Assembly (NCBI GenBank): GCA_029856155.1
Contig: JAHQWL010000023.1
Span: 96,001 to 160,000, forward strand
Direction: 5' to 3'
DNA length: 64,000 nucleotides
Origin: Promethearchaeia archaeon
Lineage (GTDB): Archaea; Asgardarchaeota; Lokiarchaeia; Sigyniarchaeales; SOKP01
Position numbers and translations under genes: made by a program. Shown here piece after piece: positions 56,504 to 63,568 of the stretch (position 1 is the first letter of the stretch; each line of letters starts with the position of its first letter). A model generated the notes under the pieces. The model was not told where the DNA came from. It searched no databases and was given only the letters and a program-made list of their open reading frames with translations.

Positions 56504-56827
56504 TTACATTTGTAATTTCTTTGCAGCTCCAGCTCCAGTGACTTCAGGATTGACCTCTTCAACGTTTTGAATTAATGTATATATTGCATCTTCCTCTAAA
56601 GCTTCTTTAAAAGCAATATACATCTCTTTACTCCCAATAAATAATCCTTTTCGTTTCATTGGTTTACCATCGTTTTTTAAAGGATTTACCTCTAGAAAGA
56701 GTAAAGCAGGTCTCGTTTTTGTTGCAGGAACTTTAACTACAAATACACCAGGGACAGGAGTCTCCATTTTTTCCCAATCTTTTCCATTTTTCAAATGATC
56801 TTTTAATTGTGCTTGAATGTCTGCCAT
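56504..56827 (-). CDS. Conserved archaeal hypothetical protein
   Basis: KDWEKMETPVPGVFVVKVP...LEVNP...KRKGL. Clean 107-aa ORF with an upstream TATA-like element. Confidence 0.75.
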   Translation of the reverse strand: MADIQAQLKDHLKNGKDWEKMETPVPGVFVVKVPATKTRPALLFLEVNPLKNDGKPMKRKGLFIGSKEMYIAFKEALEEDAIYTLIQNVEEVNPEVTGAGAAKKLQM

Positions 56828-57092: not shown

Positions 57093-57323
57093 ATGTTTGA
57101 TATGAAATTAATTTCAGTAAACTTACCGGAATCCTATCTTAAAGTTTTAGAGATACTAGTAGTTGATGGTAAATTCCCTAATAGAAGTGAAGCGATTCGA
57201 GTAGCAATCCGTGATTTGATTAAAACCGAATATTTGATAGAAGAATCAGTAAATAGAAATCTTGCCCCAAGTCTCATAGAATCTGAAGTAGAAAATGAGA
57301 TTCAAGAAAATCTATTAATCTAA
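57093..57323 (+). CDS. Ribbon-helix-helix regulator, CdrS-like
   Basis: MKLISVNLP...GKFPNRSEAIRVAIRDLI. Confidence 0.85.
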   Translation: MFDMKLISVNLPESYLKVLEILVVDGKFPNRSEAIRVAIRDLIKTEYLIEESVNRNLAPSLIESEVENEIQENLLI

Positions 57324-57373: not shown

Positions 57374-60300
57374 TTATTCTTTGCTCTTTCCTAATAAATC
57401 TAAAACCTTTTTCCTTCTCTCTTCTCTTCGTGCTTTGATTCTTTTTCTAAGTTTTTCCATTTCGTCTTCAGTTGGTTCCTTTTTACCCTTAACTAATTCT
57501 TTAATTGGTTTCTTACTGACTCTAGCTTTTAGTTCATTAATTTTATTATCAATTTCTTTAATGAAATTTTTTCCTATTTTTAGTTCTTTGAGTTGATACT
57601 TAGCTTCATTTAGTTCAGAAATGGCTTTCTTGAATTGACCATCAGCAAAAGATACATGAGCTTCGTCTAAAGCTTTATATGCAGACTCAAATTTTATATT
57701 CTCCAAATCATCGATTGAGATATCTGCAGTTATTAATGGAATTTGCGTTTCAGCTTTAATTTTATTAATTTGCTCAGTAATTCTCTCAAGTTCATCTGAT
57801 CTTTCTAATTTAGTCAATCTTTGGACTTCTTTTCTTATTATCATAATTCCCTCATTATACCTGAAACTATCGATTAATCTATTTGCTTTATCCAATTTAA
57901 TAGAGATCTTTCTATCAAGTTCTTCTTTCGCAAGTTTACGCTTCTCTTCTTTTTTTCTCTTTTCAAGTTTTTTATGTTCTCTCTTTGTTTCTTCCTTTAA
58001 TATTGCCATTTCTTTTTCTTCTTCAATTTTTTTAATTTTAATATCTTCATAAATCTCAGCTTGCTTTTGTTCCCTTTTAAGTTTGAAAAGAAGTTCATTA
58101 TTTATTCGTGAAACTTCTCGTTGCCAAGATACTTTTTCGAATAATTCTCGAGCAGCGATATATTTCTCATACGCCTCAGTGAATTTACTACGATCCATTA
58201 ATGCTGTACCTTCTTCTAAAAGTTCATATGCTTCTTCAGATATTTGTCGTTCCTGTTCTTTTTCTCTCTGAATTTTTAGAAACTCTTTTCTTTTCTCTTC
58301 TTGTTGCTGCTTTTTTATAATTTGAGCCTCAGCTAATTTTTCTTCTAATTTTTCTTCAATAATTAGTTTTTCAGCTTTCCTTTTTTCGATAGCTTCTTGT
58401 TCAAGCTCAAACGCCTTTTTCTTATTACTAATCATTGTAATTGAATCTCGGACCATATTAATTCCTTCTTGCCATTCCAAATCTGAAAATATTTTTTCAC
58501 TATCTTTGTAAATTTCAATGGCATTTTCAAAATGATCTTGTCTTAATTCACGTTTAGCCTGATCCATTAAACGAAATGCTTTATCTTTTTGGGTTTCAAA
58601 TTGGGCCACTCGTTCTTTTTTTAAATGTAAAGTTTCTTTTCGCTTTTTTAATAATTTTTCTTGCTCAACTCTTGCTTGTTCTAATAATTTTTGTTGAAGC
58701 GTTAATTCTTCTTCTCGTTTTTTAACTTTTTCGCCTTCTAAAGCACGTATATTATTGTCTTTTCCTAATCTTTCCTTGTAAAACTTAATTGTCTCGATTA
58801 ATTTAACTGATTCTTCTTTCCAGTCAAGTTTTTCAAATTGCTTCCGTGCGTCGCGATAAATTTCAATAATTTTTTCGTAAGGTGCTTCAAAATCAAAAAC
58901 ACCACCTTTAATTTTTAGTTCGTATTCCTGAGCCATTCTCTCAGCATTCTCAATCATATTAAAAATTCCCGCCGTAATTTTATCAGATTCTTTCTCTTTT
59001 TGTTGAATTTCTAATAATCTTTTTTGTCTTTCAAGAAAATCCTTATCATTATCAAAATCAGAGGCTGCTAATCCAATTTCTGGCTTTTCTAATTTCTTTT
59101 TTTCGAGAATTCTTAAATTGTCATCATTATCTTTTTTATCTTTATAAAATTTAATTGTATTAATTAAACGATTAGCTTCATCATTCCAACCAATTTTCTG
59201 GAATATTTCTCGTGCTTGTTCATAATTAGATATTGCTTTTTCATAAGGACTTTCATATACTAAAATATCTTTTCTAATGCTTAATTCATAACTTTTAACT
59301 TCTTTTTCGGTTTCATCGATAAGATTCATTGCATTGTCTAATAAAACATCTTCTTCTTTTTCAGTTTCAAGTTCTTCTATTTTTTCTGGTTTAAATGGTT
59401 TAACTTCTTTTTTACCTGCTTTTTGCAACTCTTCTAGTTCTTTTTCTCTTTGGGCTTTCTGAGCTTCAACCACGAGTAGCTTTTGATGTTTCTCTAATTT
59501 CTCCTGATAAATTTTAATCTGGTTAGCAAAGACTTCTGCTTGATCTTTCCATCCTCTTGCATAGACTTTTTCTCGTATTTCTTTATATATTTCTATTATC
59601 TCTAGATATGGTGTACTCTCTATTATTTCCCCTTTTTTAATAGTTTTTTTCATGACTGAATCAAATTCTCTTTCAAGTTTCTCTGCTTTGTTGACCTCTT
59701 CTGTAATATATTTTTGAAATTCTTTTTCTTCCTTTTTTCTATCAATAATTGCTGGTTTTTTACGATCTTTTCCAATTTCTCTTTCCATTTTATGCATTTC
59801 TTCGATATCTTGTCCTCTCTGAGCTTTCTGAGCTTCAACTTCGAGTAGATTTTGATGTTTCTCTAATTTCTCTTGATAAATTTTAATCTGGTTAGCAAAG
59901 ACTTCTGCTTGGTCTTTCCATCCCCTCGCATAGACTTTTTCTCGTATTTCTTTATATATTTCTATTATCTCTAGATATGGTGTACTCTCTATTACTTCTC
60001 CTTGTCTATAAGCCTTTCTCAAAGCCATTTCATGGTCACGTACCATTTTTTCGGCTCTGTTTATACTTTCATTAACATAATTTTCAAAATCTTCTTCTTC
60101 CTTTTTCTCCTCAATAACTGCTGGTTTTCTACGATCTTTTCCAATTTCTCTTTCCATTTTATGCATTTCTTCGATATCTTGTCCTCTCTGAGCTTTCTGA
60201 GCTTCAACTTCGAGTAGATTTTGATGTTTCTCTAATTTCTCTTGATAAATTTTAATCTGGTTAGCAAAGACTTCTGCTTGGTCTTTCCATCCTCTCGCAT

Positions 60301-63300
60301 ATACTTTTTCTCGTATTTCTTTATATATTTCTATTATCTCTAGATATGGTGTACTCTTTATTACTTCTCCTTGTCTATAAGCCTTTCTCAAAGCCATTTC
60401 GTAGTCGCGTACCATTTTTTCGGCTCTGTTTATACTTTCATTAACATAATTTTCAAAATCTTCTTCTTCCTTTTTCTCCTCAATAATTGCTGGTTTTTTA
60501 CGATCTTTTTCAATTTGTCTTTCCATTTTATGCATTTCTTCGATATCTTGTCCTCTCTGAGCTTTCTGAGCTTCAACTTCGAGTAGCTTTTGATGTTTCT
60601 CTAATTTCTCTTGATAAATTTTAATCTGATTTGCAAAGACTTCTGCTTGGTCTTTCCATCCTCTTGCATAGACTTTTTCTCGTATTTCTTTATATATTTC
60701 TATTATCTCTAGATATGGTGTACTCTCTATTACTTCTCCTTTTTTAACAGCTTTTTTCATAACTGAATCAAATTCTCTTTCAAGTTTCTCTGCTTTATTG
60801 ACTTCTTCTGTAATATATTTTTGAAATTCTTTTTCTTCCTTTTTTCTATCAATAACTGCTGGTTTTTTACGATCTTTTTCAATTTCTCTTTCCATTTTAT
60901 GCATTTCTTCGATATCTTGTCCTCTCTGAGCTTTCTGAGCTTCAACTTCGAGTAGATTTTGATGTTTCTCTAATTTCTCTTGATAAATTTTAATCTGATT
61001 TGCAAAAACTTCTGCTTGGTCTTTCCATCCCCTTGCATATACTTTTTCTCGTATATCTTTATACATCTCAATGACAACAGAATATGGTGTACTCTCTATT
61101 ACTTCTCCTTGTCTATAAGCCTTTCTCAAAGCCATTTCGTAGTCGCGTACCATTTTTTCAGCACTGTTGACATTATCGGATATATATTTTTCAAAATCTT
61201 CCTCTTCCTTTTTCCTTTCAATAGCTTTTAATCTTTCCTCATCTACTCCAATTTTTTTACCCATCTTATGCATTTCTTCAAGTGCTTTTTCCCTATGAGC
61301 CTTTTTTGCTTCTACTTCTCGTAATTTGTTATCATGCTCTAACTTTTGAGAGTAAAAAATTATTTGGGTACTATATGCTGCTGCTTCTTCTTCACGTCCC
61401 TTCTCAAGTAGCATTCGCTTTACTTTTTCATATATACCAATAATTTTCAAACAAGGGGGGTTTTCTGCTAATTTACCTTTTTTTATGGCTTTTTTCATTT
61501 CAGAATTATATTCACGAGCCATTTTTTCAGCTCGATTTACCATCGTATCGATAATAGAATCAAATTCTTCTTTTTCTTCTTCTATTCTTTTTTGTTCTTC
61601 TAGCAATTTTAATTTTTCAGCATCTAAACCTACAAGAAGTTCTTCTTTTTTGACTCTAAACGTTTCTTCGATCTCTTCCTGTTTTCTTGCTTTATCAGAT
61701 TCAATTTGTCTTAATCGATTATCCTTTTCCAACTTTTGTTTATGAGTATATATCTGACTTGAAAAGATTGTAACATCTGTATCCCATCCTCTCTCTGATG
61801 CCATCTGTAGAGCTTTTTCGTAAATATTGATAATTTCAGAATAAGGACATTTTAATTCAAATTTACCTTTTCTTAACGCTACCTCATACTCTCTTGCTAA
61901 ACGCTCTGCTCTTCTAGTCATTCCTTCAATTTGATTTCGGATATTCTGGATTTCTATTGCCTTTTGACGTTGCTCTTCTAAAACTCCTCGTTGTTCTTCA
62001 CTAATACCTGTTTCTATTTCTTCCTCCTTAACTTTCAATACTTCTTCAGTTTCTTTCTGTTTGCTTACCTTGTCAGCTTCGATTTGTCTTATTTTTTTAT
62101 CCTTTTCAAATTTTTGAATATAGACATCTATTGTATCATCATAAATCGCTGCTTCCTTGTTCCAACCCTTATCAATGAGTAATTCCTTTATGTTTTTATA
62201 AATTTCAATAACTTTAGGATATATACATTCCTCCACTATTTTTCCATCTTTGATAGCTCTCTGCATTTCTAGTTCATAATCATGTGCCATTCTAGCTGCT
62301 TCTGATACCATATTGTCAATTTGTGCTTTAAAGAACTCTTGTTCCATTTTTTGAAATTCTATTCCCTTCAATCTTTCTATTTGTGCAAGTTTTTCTTGTT
62401 CACTGACTTCTTCTACGTATTGATCAATCAGTTTTTCTTTCTCTAACTCGGTTTCAATTTTTTGCTCCATCTCTACTCTTTTTTTCTCAAGCTCTTTAAG
62501 ATGTCTAACTTTTTCTTTTTCTAATTGTTCTATAGTCTCTCGAATTCGTTTTGCTTCATATGTCCAGTTCAGTTCTTCAAATAAACTTACACCTTCGGCA
62601 TATAATTCTATAGCTTGATCATATTCTTGCAATTTAGCCCTTTCTACCGCTTGATCCAATATTTCATATGCTTGAGTTGAAATCTCCTCCTCTCTCTTTT
62701 TAGCTTCAAGAAATTGTTCTAATTTTTTTTCTTTTTCCTGCTCTTCACTTAGTTGTGCGTCTATTTCCATACTAACATCTAGTTCTTCTTTCGTAACACT
62801 ACGTAAATATTCCGCTTTTTTATTATAGCATTCCTCAATCAATGAGAATAATCTTTCTATCTCCTCAGTTTTATTAAGATTTTCAAGTATATTCTCAGCT
62901 GTATCATATTTATCAAGAGCCTCCTCAAATTTACCCGAATTAGTTAATTGGTGGGCTTCCACAATTAATTGGTCTGCTTTACTGATCAAATCAGCTTCAA
63001 TCTTAGGCTCTTCGATTAATTCAGTTTCTTCGCTCACTTCGACTTCTTTAATTTCCTTGATCGCTTCGGGTTCCTCAATTATTTCAGCTTCTTCAATTAT
63101 TTCGGCTTCCTCAACAACTTCCACTTCTCTTTCCGGTTCAGCTTGGATTTCTCGGAATGATTTTTCTTTAAGTATATAAACTTCTGAAATTTTATCATTA
63201 ATGGCTTTAATTTCTTGTTCTCTATTAATTTGTGTATATAATCCGATTGCTTGACGTAAAATTTCAATACCATCATCATAATAATGCGACCCAATTAGAT

Positions 63301-63445
63301 TAATCGCATGCTCAACTAATTCATAAGCCTCAGAAGCAATTTCTTCTTCCATATTCATCATGTCAGAAAAAAATGCTTCTTTTGTAGGATCATATCCATC
63401 CTCATCGAATTCCTGGTCGAAATCTTCCTCCTTTTTCTCTTCCAT
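57374..63445 (-). CDS. Giant helical repeat protein (about 17 TPR/MIT-like three-helix units joined by E/K/R-rich helices); likely start ATG 63445
   Basis: Recurring A..L...A......Y..AI..Y..A...F....W..E....I pattern across ~2,020 aa. No TM segment or signal peptide seen. Confidence 0.85.
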   Translation of the reverse strand: MEEKKEEDFDQEFDEDGYDPTKEAFFSDMMNMEEEIASEAYELVEHAINLIGSHYYDDGIEILRQAIGLYTQINREQEIKAINDKISEVYILKEKSFREIQAEPEREVEVVEEAEIIEEAEIIEEPEAIKEIKEVEVSEETELIEEPKIEADLISKADQLIVEAHQLTNSGKFEEALDKYDTAENILENLNKTEEIERLFSLIEECYNKKAEYLRSVTKEELDVSMEIDAQLSEEQEKEKKLEQFLEAKKREEEISTQAYEILDQAVERAKLQEYDQAIELYAEGVSLFEELNWTYEAKRIRETIEQLEKEKVRHLKELEKKRVEMEQKIETELEKEKLIDQYVEEVSEQEKLAQIERLKGIEFQKMEQEFFKAQIDNMVSEAARMAHDYELEMQRAIKDGKIVEECIYPKVIEIYKNIKELLIDKGWNKEAAIYDDTIDVYIQKFEKDKKIRQIEADKVSKQKETEEVLKVKEEEIETGISEEQRGVLEEQRQKAIEIQNIRNQIEGMTRRAERLAREYEVALRKGKFELKCPYSEIINIYEKALQMASERGWDTDVTIFSSQIYTHKQKLEKDNRLRQIESDKARKQEEIEETFRVKKEELLVGLDAEKLKLLEEQKRIEEEKEEFDSIIDTMVNRAEKMAREYNSEMKKAIKKGKLAENPPCLKIIGIYEKVKRMLLEKGREEEAAAYSTQIIFYSQKLEHDNKLREVEAKKAHREKALEEMHKMGKKIGVDEERLKAIERKKEEEDFEKYISDNVNSAEKMVRDYEMALRKAYRQGEVIESTPYSVVIEMYKDIREKVYARGWKDQAEVFANQIKIYQEKLEKHQNLLEVEAQKAQRGQDIEEMHKMEREIEKDRKKPAVIDRKKEEKEFQKYITEEVNKAEKLEREFDSVMKKAVKKGEVIESTPYLEIIEIYKEIREKVYARGWKDQAEVFANQIKIYQEKLEKHQKLLEVEAQKAQRGQDIEEMHKMERQIEKDRKKPAIIEEKKEEEDFENYVNESINRAEKMVRDYEMALRKAYRQGEVIKSTPYLEIIEIYKEIREKVYARGWKDQAEVFANQIKIYQEKLEKHQNLLEVEAQKAQRGQDIEEMHKMEREIGKDRRKPAVIEEKKEEEDFENYVNESINRAEKMVRDHEMALRKAYRQGEVIESTPYLEIIEIYKEIREKVYARGWKDQAEVFANQIKIYQEKLEKHQNLLEVEAQKAQRGQDIEEMHKMEREIGKDRKKPAIIDRKKEEKEFQKYITEEVNKAEKLEREFDSVMKKTIKKGEIIESTPYLEIIEIYKEIREKVYARGWKDQAEVFANQIKIYQEKLEKHQKLLVVEAQKAQREKELEELQKAGKKEVKPFKPEKIEELETEKEEDVLLDNAMNLIDETEKEVKSYELSIRKDILVYESPYEKAISNYEQAREIFQKIGWNDEANRLINTIKFYKDKKDNDDNLRILEKKKLEKPEIGLAASDFDNDKDFLERQKRLLEIQQKEKESDKITAGIFNMIENAERMAQEYELKIKGGVFDFEAPYEKIIEIYRDARKQFEKLDWKEESVKLIETIKFYKERLGKDNNIRALEGEKVKKREEELTLQQKLLEQARVEQEKLLKKRKETLHLKKERVAQFETQKDKAFRLMDQAKRELRQDHFENAIEIYKDSEKIFSDLEWQEGINMVRDSITMISNKKKAFELEQEAIEKRKAEKLIIEEKLEEKLAEAQIIKKQQQEEKRKEFLKIQREKEQERQISEEAYELLEEGTALMDRSKFTEAYEKYIAARELFEKVSWQREVSRINNELLFKLKREQKQAEIYEDIKIKKIEEEKEMAILKEETKREHKKLEKRKKEEKRKLAKEELDRKISIKLDKANRLIDSFRYNEGIMIIRKEVQRLTKLERSDELERITEQINKIKAETQIPLITADISIDDLENIKFESAYKALDEAHVSFADGQFKKAISELNEAKYQLKELKIGKNFIKEIDNKINELKARVSKKPIKELVKGKKEPTEDEMEKLRKRIKARREERRKKVLDLLGKSKE
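59447..61207 (-). repeat. Five in-frame tandem 369-bp (123-aa) near-identical repeats
   Basis: Unit starts at 61207, 60838, 60469, 60100 and 59731. Shadow ORFs recur at offsets of 369 (60002/60371) and 1107 (59650/60757). Confidence 0.95.
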
Positions 63446-63568
63446 AAATCTCAACTTTTTTTTGGAGAATTAAGAATGAACTTACTAAACAAAAATCTTT
63501 CTACTATATTTCTATTACAAATTAGTTTTAATTTAAAAATCGTTTACCCAAAATAAATATTTAATCGA

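Follow-up and report, generated by a model that had tools for sequence, protein, structure and literature searches.

A giant conserved gene of Loki-type Asgard archaea encodes a chain of MIT-like and extended three-helix units with conserved ends and a variable middle

The window analysed here, a stretch of 64,000 nucleotides from the genome of a Promethearchaeia archaeon (contig JAHQWL010000023.1, positions 96,001 to 160,000), carries on its minus strand a gene for a giant repeat protein. The gene is genuine and conserved among Loki-type Asgard archaea, and its product is soluble. The protein is made of 17 units of two kinds, short and extended, which were predicted to fold as three-helix bundles, and across the family to which the window belongs its ends are conserved and its middle is variable. 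We give about an even chance to the reading that the giant protein serves in the cytoplasm as a modular scaffold or tether, whose ends dock partners and whose middle varies in length. The layout of conserved ends and variable middle, both terminal motifs, the small neighbour genes kept throughout the order and the orthologues in Candidatus Lokiarchaeum ossiferum and Promethearchaeum syntrophicum MK-D1 are new here. A literature search with Asgard MIT arrays, spectrin-like proteins, locus tags and accessions as subjects returned no paper on the giant protein in the library searched.

The gene lies in a single intact open frame on the minus strand (57374..63454), which comprises 2026 codons when counted from a TTG at 63454. 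The ATG at 63445 was taken as the likely start because the orthologues begin with MEEKKEE..., and the gene limits given in the original prediction, which fit these orthologue starts, were exact. A chance frame was dismissed because 184 proteins of 1,114-3,546 amino acids (aa) matched the giant protein, with E = 0 for all of the 120 that were listed. The small plus-strand frames within the gene are most likely antisense and spurious. The composition of the protein showed 19% E and 14% K, and as a whole it is strongly acidic. No membrane segment was found in it, the highest Kyte-Doolittle mean over 19 residues being 0.46, and its net charge was -63 over the first 400 aa and +13 over the last 226 aa. 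The earlier claims of no transmembrane segment, an acidic N-terminus and a basic C-terminus held in this analysis.

Counting with hidden Markov models (HMMs) of both unit types gave the unit string SSSEEEEEEEEEESSSS, which reproduced exactly the layout of 3 short, 10 extended and 4 short units proposed at the outset. The HMM of the 123-residue repeat placed the starts of the extended units at aa 369, 502, 626, 747, 870, 993, 1116, 1239, 1366 and 1487. In each extended unit, 13-17 residues were inserted between helices 1 and 2, and helix 3 was followed by a conserved KLREIEaqK stretch. Profile-profile alignment of the extended and the short units gave a probability of 95.9% (E 5.8e-9, 59 columns) with the insertion in the extended type, so that the insert noted earlier was confirmed. 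Judged from these profiles, the two types are related as one kind of bundle, the extended one with an insert. Five central extended units are recent copies, and the middle of the gene is still changing.

The bundle cores were separated by linkers of 39-63 aa, with the exception of the 9 aa between units 16 and 17, which are possibly a tandem pair. The linkers consisted of 55-68% E/K/R/D/Q and approximately 30% hydrophobic residues, held 2-12 opposite-charge i/i+4 pairs each and in several cases included Gly or Pro. No heptad periodicity of hydrophobic residues was found in 13 of the 14 linkers (z -0.6 to +1.8), the remaining one reaching +3.3, and a classical coiled coil is therefore unlikely.

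The AlphaFold2 model of three units (residues 240-625, 22 orthologous rows) was wholly helical, with a predicted local distance difference test score (pLDDT) of 85.6 and a predicted template modelling score (pTM) of 0.35. A continuous helix of 105 residues, predicted at pLDDT ~90 or more, formed helix 3 of short unit 3 as well as helix 1 of the first extended unit, and a break with pLDDT < 50 was predicted between the first and second extended units. The model of a single extended unit (64 rows) was a compact three-helix bundle with pLDDT 94.3 and pTM 0.83, in which helices 1 and 3 (residues 2-36 and 65-98) measured 34-35 residues and helix 2 (residues 45-61) measured 17. Because of the helix layout and secondary structure, the linker lengths and the low pTM, the modelled bundles appear separate and do not look packed as a tetratricopeptide repeat (TPR) solenoid. 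The original prediction of beads on a string was supported, the elongated protein being neither a TPR solenoid nor an enzyme. The linkers were E/K/R-rich as described and may be single alpha-helices, although their share of hydrophobic residues is ~30%, several have Gly or Pro and one was a predicted low-confidence break. Spectrin-like continuity was predicted at one junction but was broken at the next, and the Pfam spectrin family (PF00435) was absent from the Pfam matches of the giant protein at E ≤ 1.

Structural comparison was carried out with both unit types. Neither the three-unit model nor the single extended unit had a Foldseek match in the PDB at E ≤ 0.001. The extended unit was also compared, independently of Foldseek, with ~48,000 PDB representatives, and its matches were generic long helical bundles only (designed, ferritin-like, Atg1 tMIT with Z 8.7, plectin repeat with Z 8.2). 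The AlphaFold2 model of the short unit overlaid the MIT domains of NRBF2 (Z 10.5, root-mean-square deviation (rmsd) 2.4 Å over 73 residues), Vps4 (Z 10.2, 2.0 Å over 71), calpain-7 (Z 10.0, 1.4 Å over 67), Sulfolobus Vps4 (Z 9.7, 1.4 Å over 63), katanin p60 and MITD1, with an overall range of Z 9.3-10.5 and rmsd 1.4-2.4 Å. It also overlaid TPR pieces of 1.5 repeats, including the TPR of CHIP/STUB1 at Z ~9.5. As modelled, the short unit has the MIT fold, an antiparallel three-helix bundle of ~70-80 residues, such Z values being unspecific for helical bundles.

The resemblance of the short units to MIT domains was also seen in sequence searches. The Pfam MIT model (PF04212, gathering cut-off 30 bits) was run on 24 short units singly, 7 from the giant protein and 17 from a paralogue in the same genome, and matches were counted at E ≤ 0.05. 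Sixteen of the 24 matched, the best at 28.7 bits, and the whole giant protein scored 21.7 bits, both below the cut-off. TPR families were each matched by only 2-6 of the 24 units, with whole-protein TPR matches also below their cut-offs, and an NCBIfam scan gave noise only. When the genome of the window was scanned with the same MIT model, Vps4 came first (59 bits), followed by units 3 (28) and 2 (24.4) of the giant protein; precomputed PF04212 matches are carried by many of the orthologues. The short-unit profile aligned with the Vps4 MIT profile of the archaeal family at a probability of 78.9% (E 1.6e-5), over only 30 columns. For the extended units the result was different. None of 64 matched Pfam MIT, no Pfam family matched them consistently, and hhalign gave a probability of 0.8% against the Vps4 MIT profile. 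The MIT-likeness noted at the outset was retained for the short units and not for the extended ones, which at the level of sequence are tied to MIT solely through the short units.

Both ends of the giant protein carried a conserved motif. Counts of orthologues given here out of 120 refer to the matches listed among the 184 proteins found by sequence search at E ≤ 0.001. The head pattern D[PLI][TS]K.[AT]FF, within ..EFDEDGFDPTKEAFFSDM.., occurred in the first 70 residues of 108 of the 120; the motif is referred to here as FDPTKEAFF, and the first 38 residues of the protein have a net charge of -12. The tail (RIAARREERRKKVLDLL) is a basic amphipathic helix with the consensus EDExExL(R/K)ARIAARREERRKKVLDLLKK, which was derived from 70 anchored tails, and the strict tail pattern was present in the last 45 residues of 86/120. 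When the tail stretch ExxL(R/K)xRIAARR was compared by eye with the MIT-interacting motif MIM1, (D/E)xxLxxRLxxL(K/R), four of six positions fitted, and Arg was found where MIM1 has Leu (hydrophobic position 11). The likeness to MIM1 is a by-eye resemblance, because a search of PDB sequences with the tail profile found no MIM peptide among solved structures and nothing relevant.

All named organisms among the listed matches were Loki-type Asgard archaea, and the source names were "hypothetical" or "TPR repeat protein" ("tetratricopeptide repeat protein"). Genome searches at E ≤ 1e-10 gave matches in 126 of the 134 genomes of the window's own family. Weaker matches were obtained in two sister families of the same order, and the genome searches gave no match in the other families of the phylum. 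The extended-unit profile led to giant orthologues, whose open frames span 2,275 to 2,551 aa, in three closed genomes of one sister family (f3), which by exact look-up were UYP47749.1/NEF87_004034 of L. ossiferum, QEE15784.2/DSAG12_01611 of MK-D1 and one protein of Candidatus Harpocratesius repetitus. Only 154 clusters in a set of 1.84 billion representative proteins matched the same profile at E ≤ 0.001, most of them multi-unit proteins or short, maybe fragmentary, records. The MK-D1 orthologue is transcribed; among the genes shown from Supplementary Table 3 of PMC7015854, DSAG12_01611 stands at 254 reads per kilobase per million (RPKM), within the range of the others, and is not flagged there as a eukaryotic signature protein.

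Of the 22 long frames taken from the window's own family, 20 showed the order of 3 short, n extended and 4 short units, with n = 5-10. One further frame had 3 short, 5 extended and just 3 short units, one C-terminal unit fewer, and two frames of one genus (g11) started inside the array. The three orthologues of the sister family closed with four or five short units. In genus g11 the gene seems to be split or rearranged: in its two loci (L038 and L039, genomes G169 and G170) a separate frame of ~600-690 aa covered the N-terminal part and another of 1,606-2,270 aa opened in the array, and G170 also had a 2,942-aa frame with matches.

In the reading as a scaffold or tether, the giant protein would lie in the cytoplasm and form a segmented, all-helical chain of 17 three-helix bundles, adjustable in length. 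Its docking ends would be the acidic FDPTKEAFF head with three MIT-like bundles on one side, and four MIT-like bundles with the basic tail on the other. The middle array of lineage-specific extended bundles would set length, valency or both, because the number of extended units differs between species. Fully stretched, the chain may span very roughly 100-200 nm, if helical residues are counted at ~0.15 nm each, bundles at 3-5 nm and linkers at 25-63 residues. By analogy with MIT and TPR units, the MIT-like bundles would most plausibly bind short helical peptide motifs of partners, and the acidic head and the basic tail could join molecules head to tail. Several points weigh against this picture. 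Neutral repeat slippage, too, would lead one to expect a variable number of units, with no function required. The docking of partners is a role that we infer, and the structural matches, at Z ~10, are of a level that chance alone can give for helical bundles. The separateness of the modelled bundles was read from secondary structure, linker lengths and low pTM, not from inspected coordinates. In addition, AlphaFold is often over-confident when drawing isolated charged helices.

The most interesting rival, unlikely as we hold it, is a multivalent MIT array for ESCRT, in which the bundles would bind the C-terminal MIM helices of the two ESCRT-III proteins, or the MIT domain of Vps4 would bind the MIM-like tail of the giant protein. 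In both cases the chain would serve to organise ESCRT-III polymers or to tether them. No family is matched by more of the short units than Pfam MIT, which many orthologues match as well, the short-unit profile aligns with the Vps4 MIT of the family, and the predicted short unit overlays the MIT domains of Vps4, NRBF2, calpain-7, MITD1 and Sulfolobus Vps4. The genome of the window encodes Vps4 and two ESCRT-III proteins, of which the tails end in amphipathic helices (..DQKIAELEKELNRLKSDE and ..DQLKDEIDKLRKELQG); this agrees with the MIM1-like helices that PMC7240154 reports in Asgard Vps2/24/46, and the tail of the giant protein itself resembles MIM1 in part. However, the 30 columns of the Vps4 alignment run from helix 1 to helix 2, a stretch common to TPR repeats, the ten extended units lack any MIT signal, and the tail departs from MIM1 at its hydrophobic position 11 and found no MIM peptide in solved structures. 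The giant gene also lies outside the ESCRT locus and on another contig, Vps4 adjoining ESCRT-IIIB on contig 8 and ESCRT-IIIA being on contig 57. A co-fold in which short unit 3 and the ESCRT-IIIB tail were each supplied as an alignment scored 0.00 ("no answer"), which is evidence neither way. A wider form of the idea, which we regard as quite doubtful, is that the giant protein is an Asgard counterpart of spectrin- or golgin-type rods of ~100-200 nm. ESCRT-III tails or the protein's own conserved basic tail would supply the MIM-type helices for its MIT-like bundles to capture, and a head-to-tail network could then position or space membrane-remodelling machinery, for example in the protrusions of Lokiarchaeia.

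Three other explanations are less likely than the ESCRT array. A peptide-binding scaffold of TPR type with no tie to ESCRT, such as an adaptor in proteostasis or one like a co-chaperone, with units of 1.5 TPRs that bind C-terminal peptides, seems improbable. The scattered TPR matches of the short units, the CHIP/STUB1 overlay, the database name of the orthologues and the proteasome alpha and small GTPase genes upstream in the window's own family are in its favour, but TPRs act stacked and the units of the giant protein are isolated by helices of 39-63 residues, and these neighbours are missing from the sister-family loci, including those of L. ossiferum and MK-D1. We think it more improbable again that the chain is an organiser of the nucleoid or of replication, with a basic tail that binds DNA and a body that bridges or spaces chromosomal sites. 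The conserved, Arg/Lys-rich tail would suit such a role, as would the constant neighbours (a winged-helix protein, a ribbon-helix-helix (RHH) protein and a small one for which a PUR/PC4-like family is a weak lead) and the RFC genes nearby in the window's own family. The giant protein, however, has no DNA-binding domain and is strongly acidic overall, winged-helix folds also make protein-protein contacts, and the RFC genes are neighbours only within the family. Least credible is a coiled-coil filament former like intermediate filaments or crescentin, with long helices pairing between molecules. Long helices with ~30% hydrophobic residues and opposite charges at the two ends are compatible with it, but nearly all linkers lack heptad periodicity and each unit folds back into its own bundle.

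The coordinates of the gene, its parts and its constant neighbours are collected in Table 1.

Table 1. Position of the giant gene, of the parts of its product and of the neighbouring genes in the window
Feature	Coordinates	Strand	Details
Giant repeat protein gene	57374..63445	minus	~2,023 aa from ATG at 63445; stop codon 57374-57376
Acidic N-terminal head, motif ..EFDEDGYDPTKEAFFSDM..	63341..63445	minus	pattern in 108/120 listed orthologues
Short MIT-like unit 1 (aa ~39-95)	63170..63340	minus	
Short MIT-like unit 2 (aa ~156-212)	62819..62989	minus	Pfam MIT 24.4 bits in own-genome search
Short MIT-like unit 3 (aa ~258-314), the most MIT-like	62513..62683	minus	Pfam MIT 28.7 bits, E 1.4e-6, profile positions 3-64 of 66; AlphaFold2 model and MIT overlay
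Array of 10 extended three-helix units (aa 369-1593)	58676..62350	minus	period ~123 aa
Recently duplicated part of the array	59439..61223	minus	369-nt period, 4.8 copies; unit pairs 73-98% identical in DNA
Short unit 14 (aa ~1622-1678)	58421..58591	minus	
Short unit 15 (aa ~1742-1798)	58061..58231	minus	
Short units 16 and 17 (aa ~1855-1911 and ~1921-1977)	57524..57892	minus	9 aa between them
Basic C-terminal tail, helix motif ..L(R/K)xRIAARREERRKKVLDLL..	57377..57502	minus	net charge +10; amphipathic periodicity z +4.2
Winged-helix-like gene P0122, 130 aa	63569..63961	minus	directly upstream of and co-oriented with the giant gene throughout the order
RHH gene, divergent, just downstream	57093..57323	plus	Pfam RHH_1 E 2.1e-6; 18/19 loci
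P0123, 107 aa, beyond the RHH gene downstream	56504..56827	minus	conserved across the order

The neighbours of the giant gene that are constant across the order were the winged-helix-like gene, the RHH gene and the 107-residue gene, and the MK-D1 gene table has the same order. P0122 adjoined the giant gene in every locus examined and measured 86-96 aa in L. ossiferum and MK-D1; its core was ..IAALGVMEDELGGPVPIDEI..GW.LT.EGG.., and it had no Pfam family and weak winged-helix matches. P0123 also had no Pfam family. It gave a weak lead to a PUR/PC4-like family, and small proteins of this sort occur widely in archaea. In MK-D1, gene order alone points to DSAG12_01609 (arCOG08221) as its most likely counterpart, and the RHH gene most likely corresponds to DSAG12_01610, which is annotated as a nickel-responsive regulator. 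A Rab-like GTPase gene (two genes upstream) and the proteasome alpha, GNAT and RFC genes were neighbours within the window's own family only. A gene for a membrane protein of ~1,000-1,076 aa stood divergent from the winged-helix/giant pair in one genus (g12) and in the sister family, to which MK-D1 and L. ossiferum belong (L097:3730-6945, minus; L034:418-3447, minus; L099:13748-16918, plus). Two copies that were scanned matched UPF0182, and the MK-D1 copy is annotated COG1615. This gene was not found within the 35 kb examined around the giant gene of the window.

Further observations were made on related proteins and genomes. The genome of the window encodes a second giant protein (contig C35:12201-18581, plus; loci L002, L005 and L007), a frame of 2,127 aa with 18 short MIT-like units and no extended units, without the FDPTKEAFF head and without the RIAARR tail; it appears to be a member of a sister family of bead-chain proteins. 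Extended units were also found in single records fused to Roadblock/LC7 (P0204), to a winged helix-turn-helix and a Ras-like GTPase (P0221) and to PadR (P0233). The Roadblock/LC7 fusion was whole in one genome only, and the other two were on one contig of 3.3 kb and one of 1.7 kb, respectively. These fusions are weak leads and may be rare real fusions or assembly chimeras. At the ESCRT locus (contig C8, L046), the Vps4 gene (417 aa) is divergent from the ESCRT-IIIB gene (211 aa), which is followed by a gene for a small Ras-like GTPase of 190 aa. NCBI titles label some close relatives (L014, L019 and L021) as Hermodarchaeota, Hodarchaeota or Thorarchaeota. The 2,012-aa frame and match statistics of L019 were identical to those of L023, which the genome collection places in the genus of the window, and the phylum labels of submitters are therefore unreliable for this group.

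The giant protein is very large, conserved and transcribed, and its short units are built, as predicted, on the fold that eukaryotes use to recognise ESCRT-III, here as a long modular chain. Since NEF87_004034 and DSAG12_01611 belong to cultured species, searches for localisation and partners are feasible now. If the protein does bind ESCRT-III or form a network, it would be a new structural element in Asgard cell biology; even as a spacer alone, it would illustrate how a natural protein can have its length tuned by repeat number.

Among known systems, the short units are closest to the MIT domains (PF04212) of Vps4/CdvC and of the tandem-MIT proteins Vta1/LIP5, calpain-7, ULK3, Atg1 and MITD1. 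They share the three-helix form of ~60-75 aa, the pattern A..L...A......(F/Y)(D/E).A(I/L)..Y, scores just under the Pfam cut-off and a close overlay, and the last two units of the giant protein stand 9 aa apart as in a tandem-MIT protein. The giant protein differs in having 17 units, where those proteins have one or two, in lacking any ATPase, kinase or protease part, and in that ten of its units carry the insert and no MIT signal and most are held apart by long helices. With TPR proteins it shares the helix-turn-helix packing pattern of small and aromatic residues and weak TPR matches. TPR arrays consist of three or more adjoining 34-residue repeats, whereas the units of the giant protein hold 1.5 repeats each and do not adjoin, so that no TPR superhelix is possible in it.

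Spectrin-repeat rods (spectrin, alpha-actinin, dystrophin and plakins) likewise string together three-helix bundles of ~100-120 aa, the last helix of each continuing as the first of the next, as was predicted once in the giant protein. The plectin repeat 2odv overlaid the extended unit with an rmsd of 2.5 Å over 90 residues (Z 8.2), and the long cytoplasmic spacer or scaffold role of these rods is the one proposed for the giant protein. Bacterial EzrA is a comparable chain of three-helix bundles. Unlike spectrin, the giant protein had no Pfam spectrin match, a helix 2 of only 17 residues in place of one of three long helices of ~30, extra spacers of 25-63 residues, some with predicted breaks, and no actin-binding or membrane-binding end domain. 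The ER/K single alpha-helix spacers (myosin VI/X and caldesmon) and the golgin/EEA1 tethers are eukaryotic proteins in which charged helices or coiled coils separate functional modules. Long charged helices between modules and specialised ends are features in common with the giant protein, to which the Rab-like GTPase gene two genes upstream in the window's own family may be added; no Rab-binding element was identified in the giant protein. ER/K helices are stable as monomers, with a dense E-K/R pattern at i to i+4 and few hydrophobic residues; the linkers of the giant protein have a lower E/K/R content, being 55-68% charged or polar and ~30% hydrophobic, several with Gly or Pro. The giant protein combines known kinds, MIT-like bundles and repeat rods, and is not a new category.

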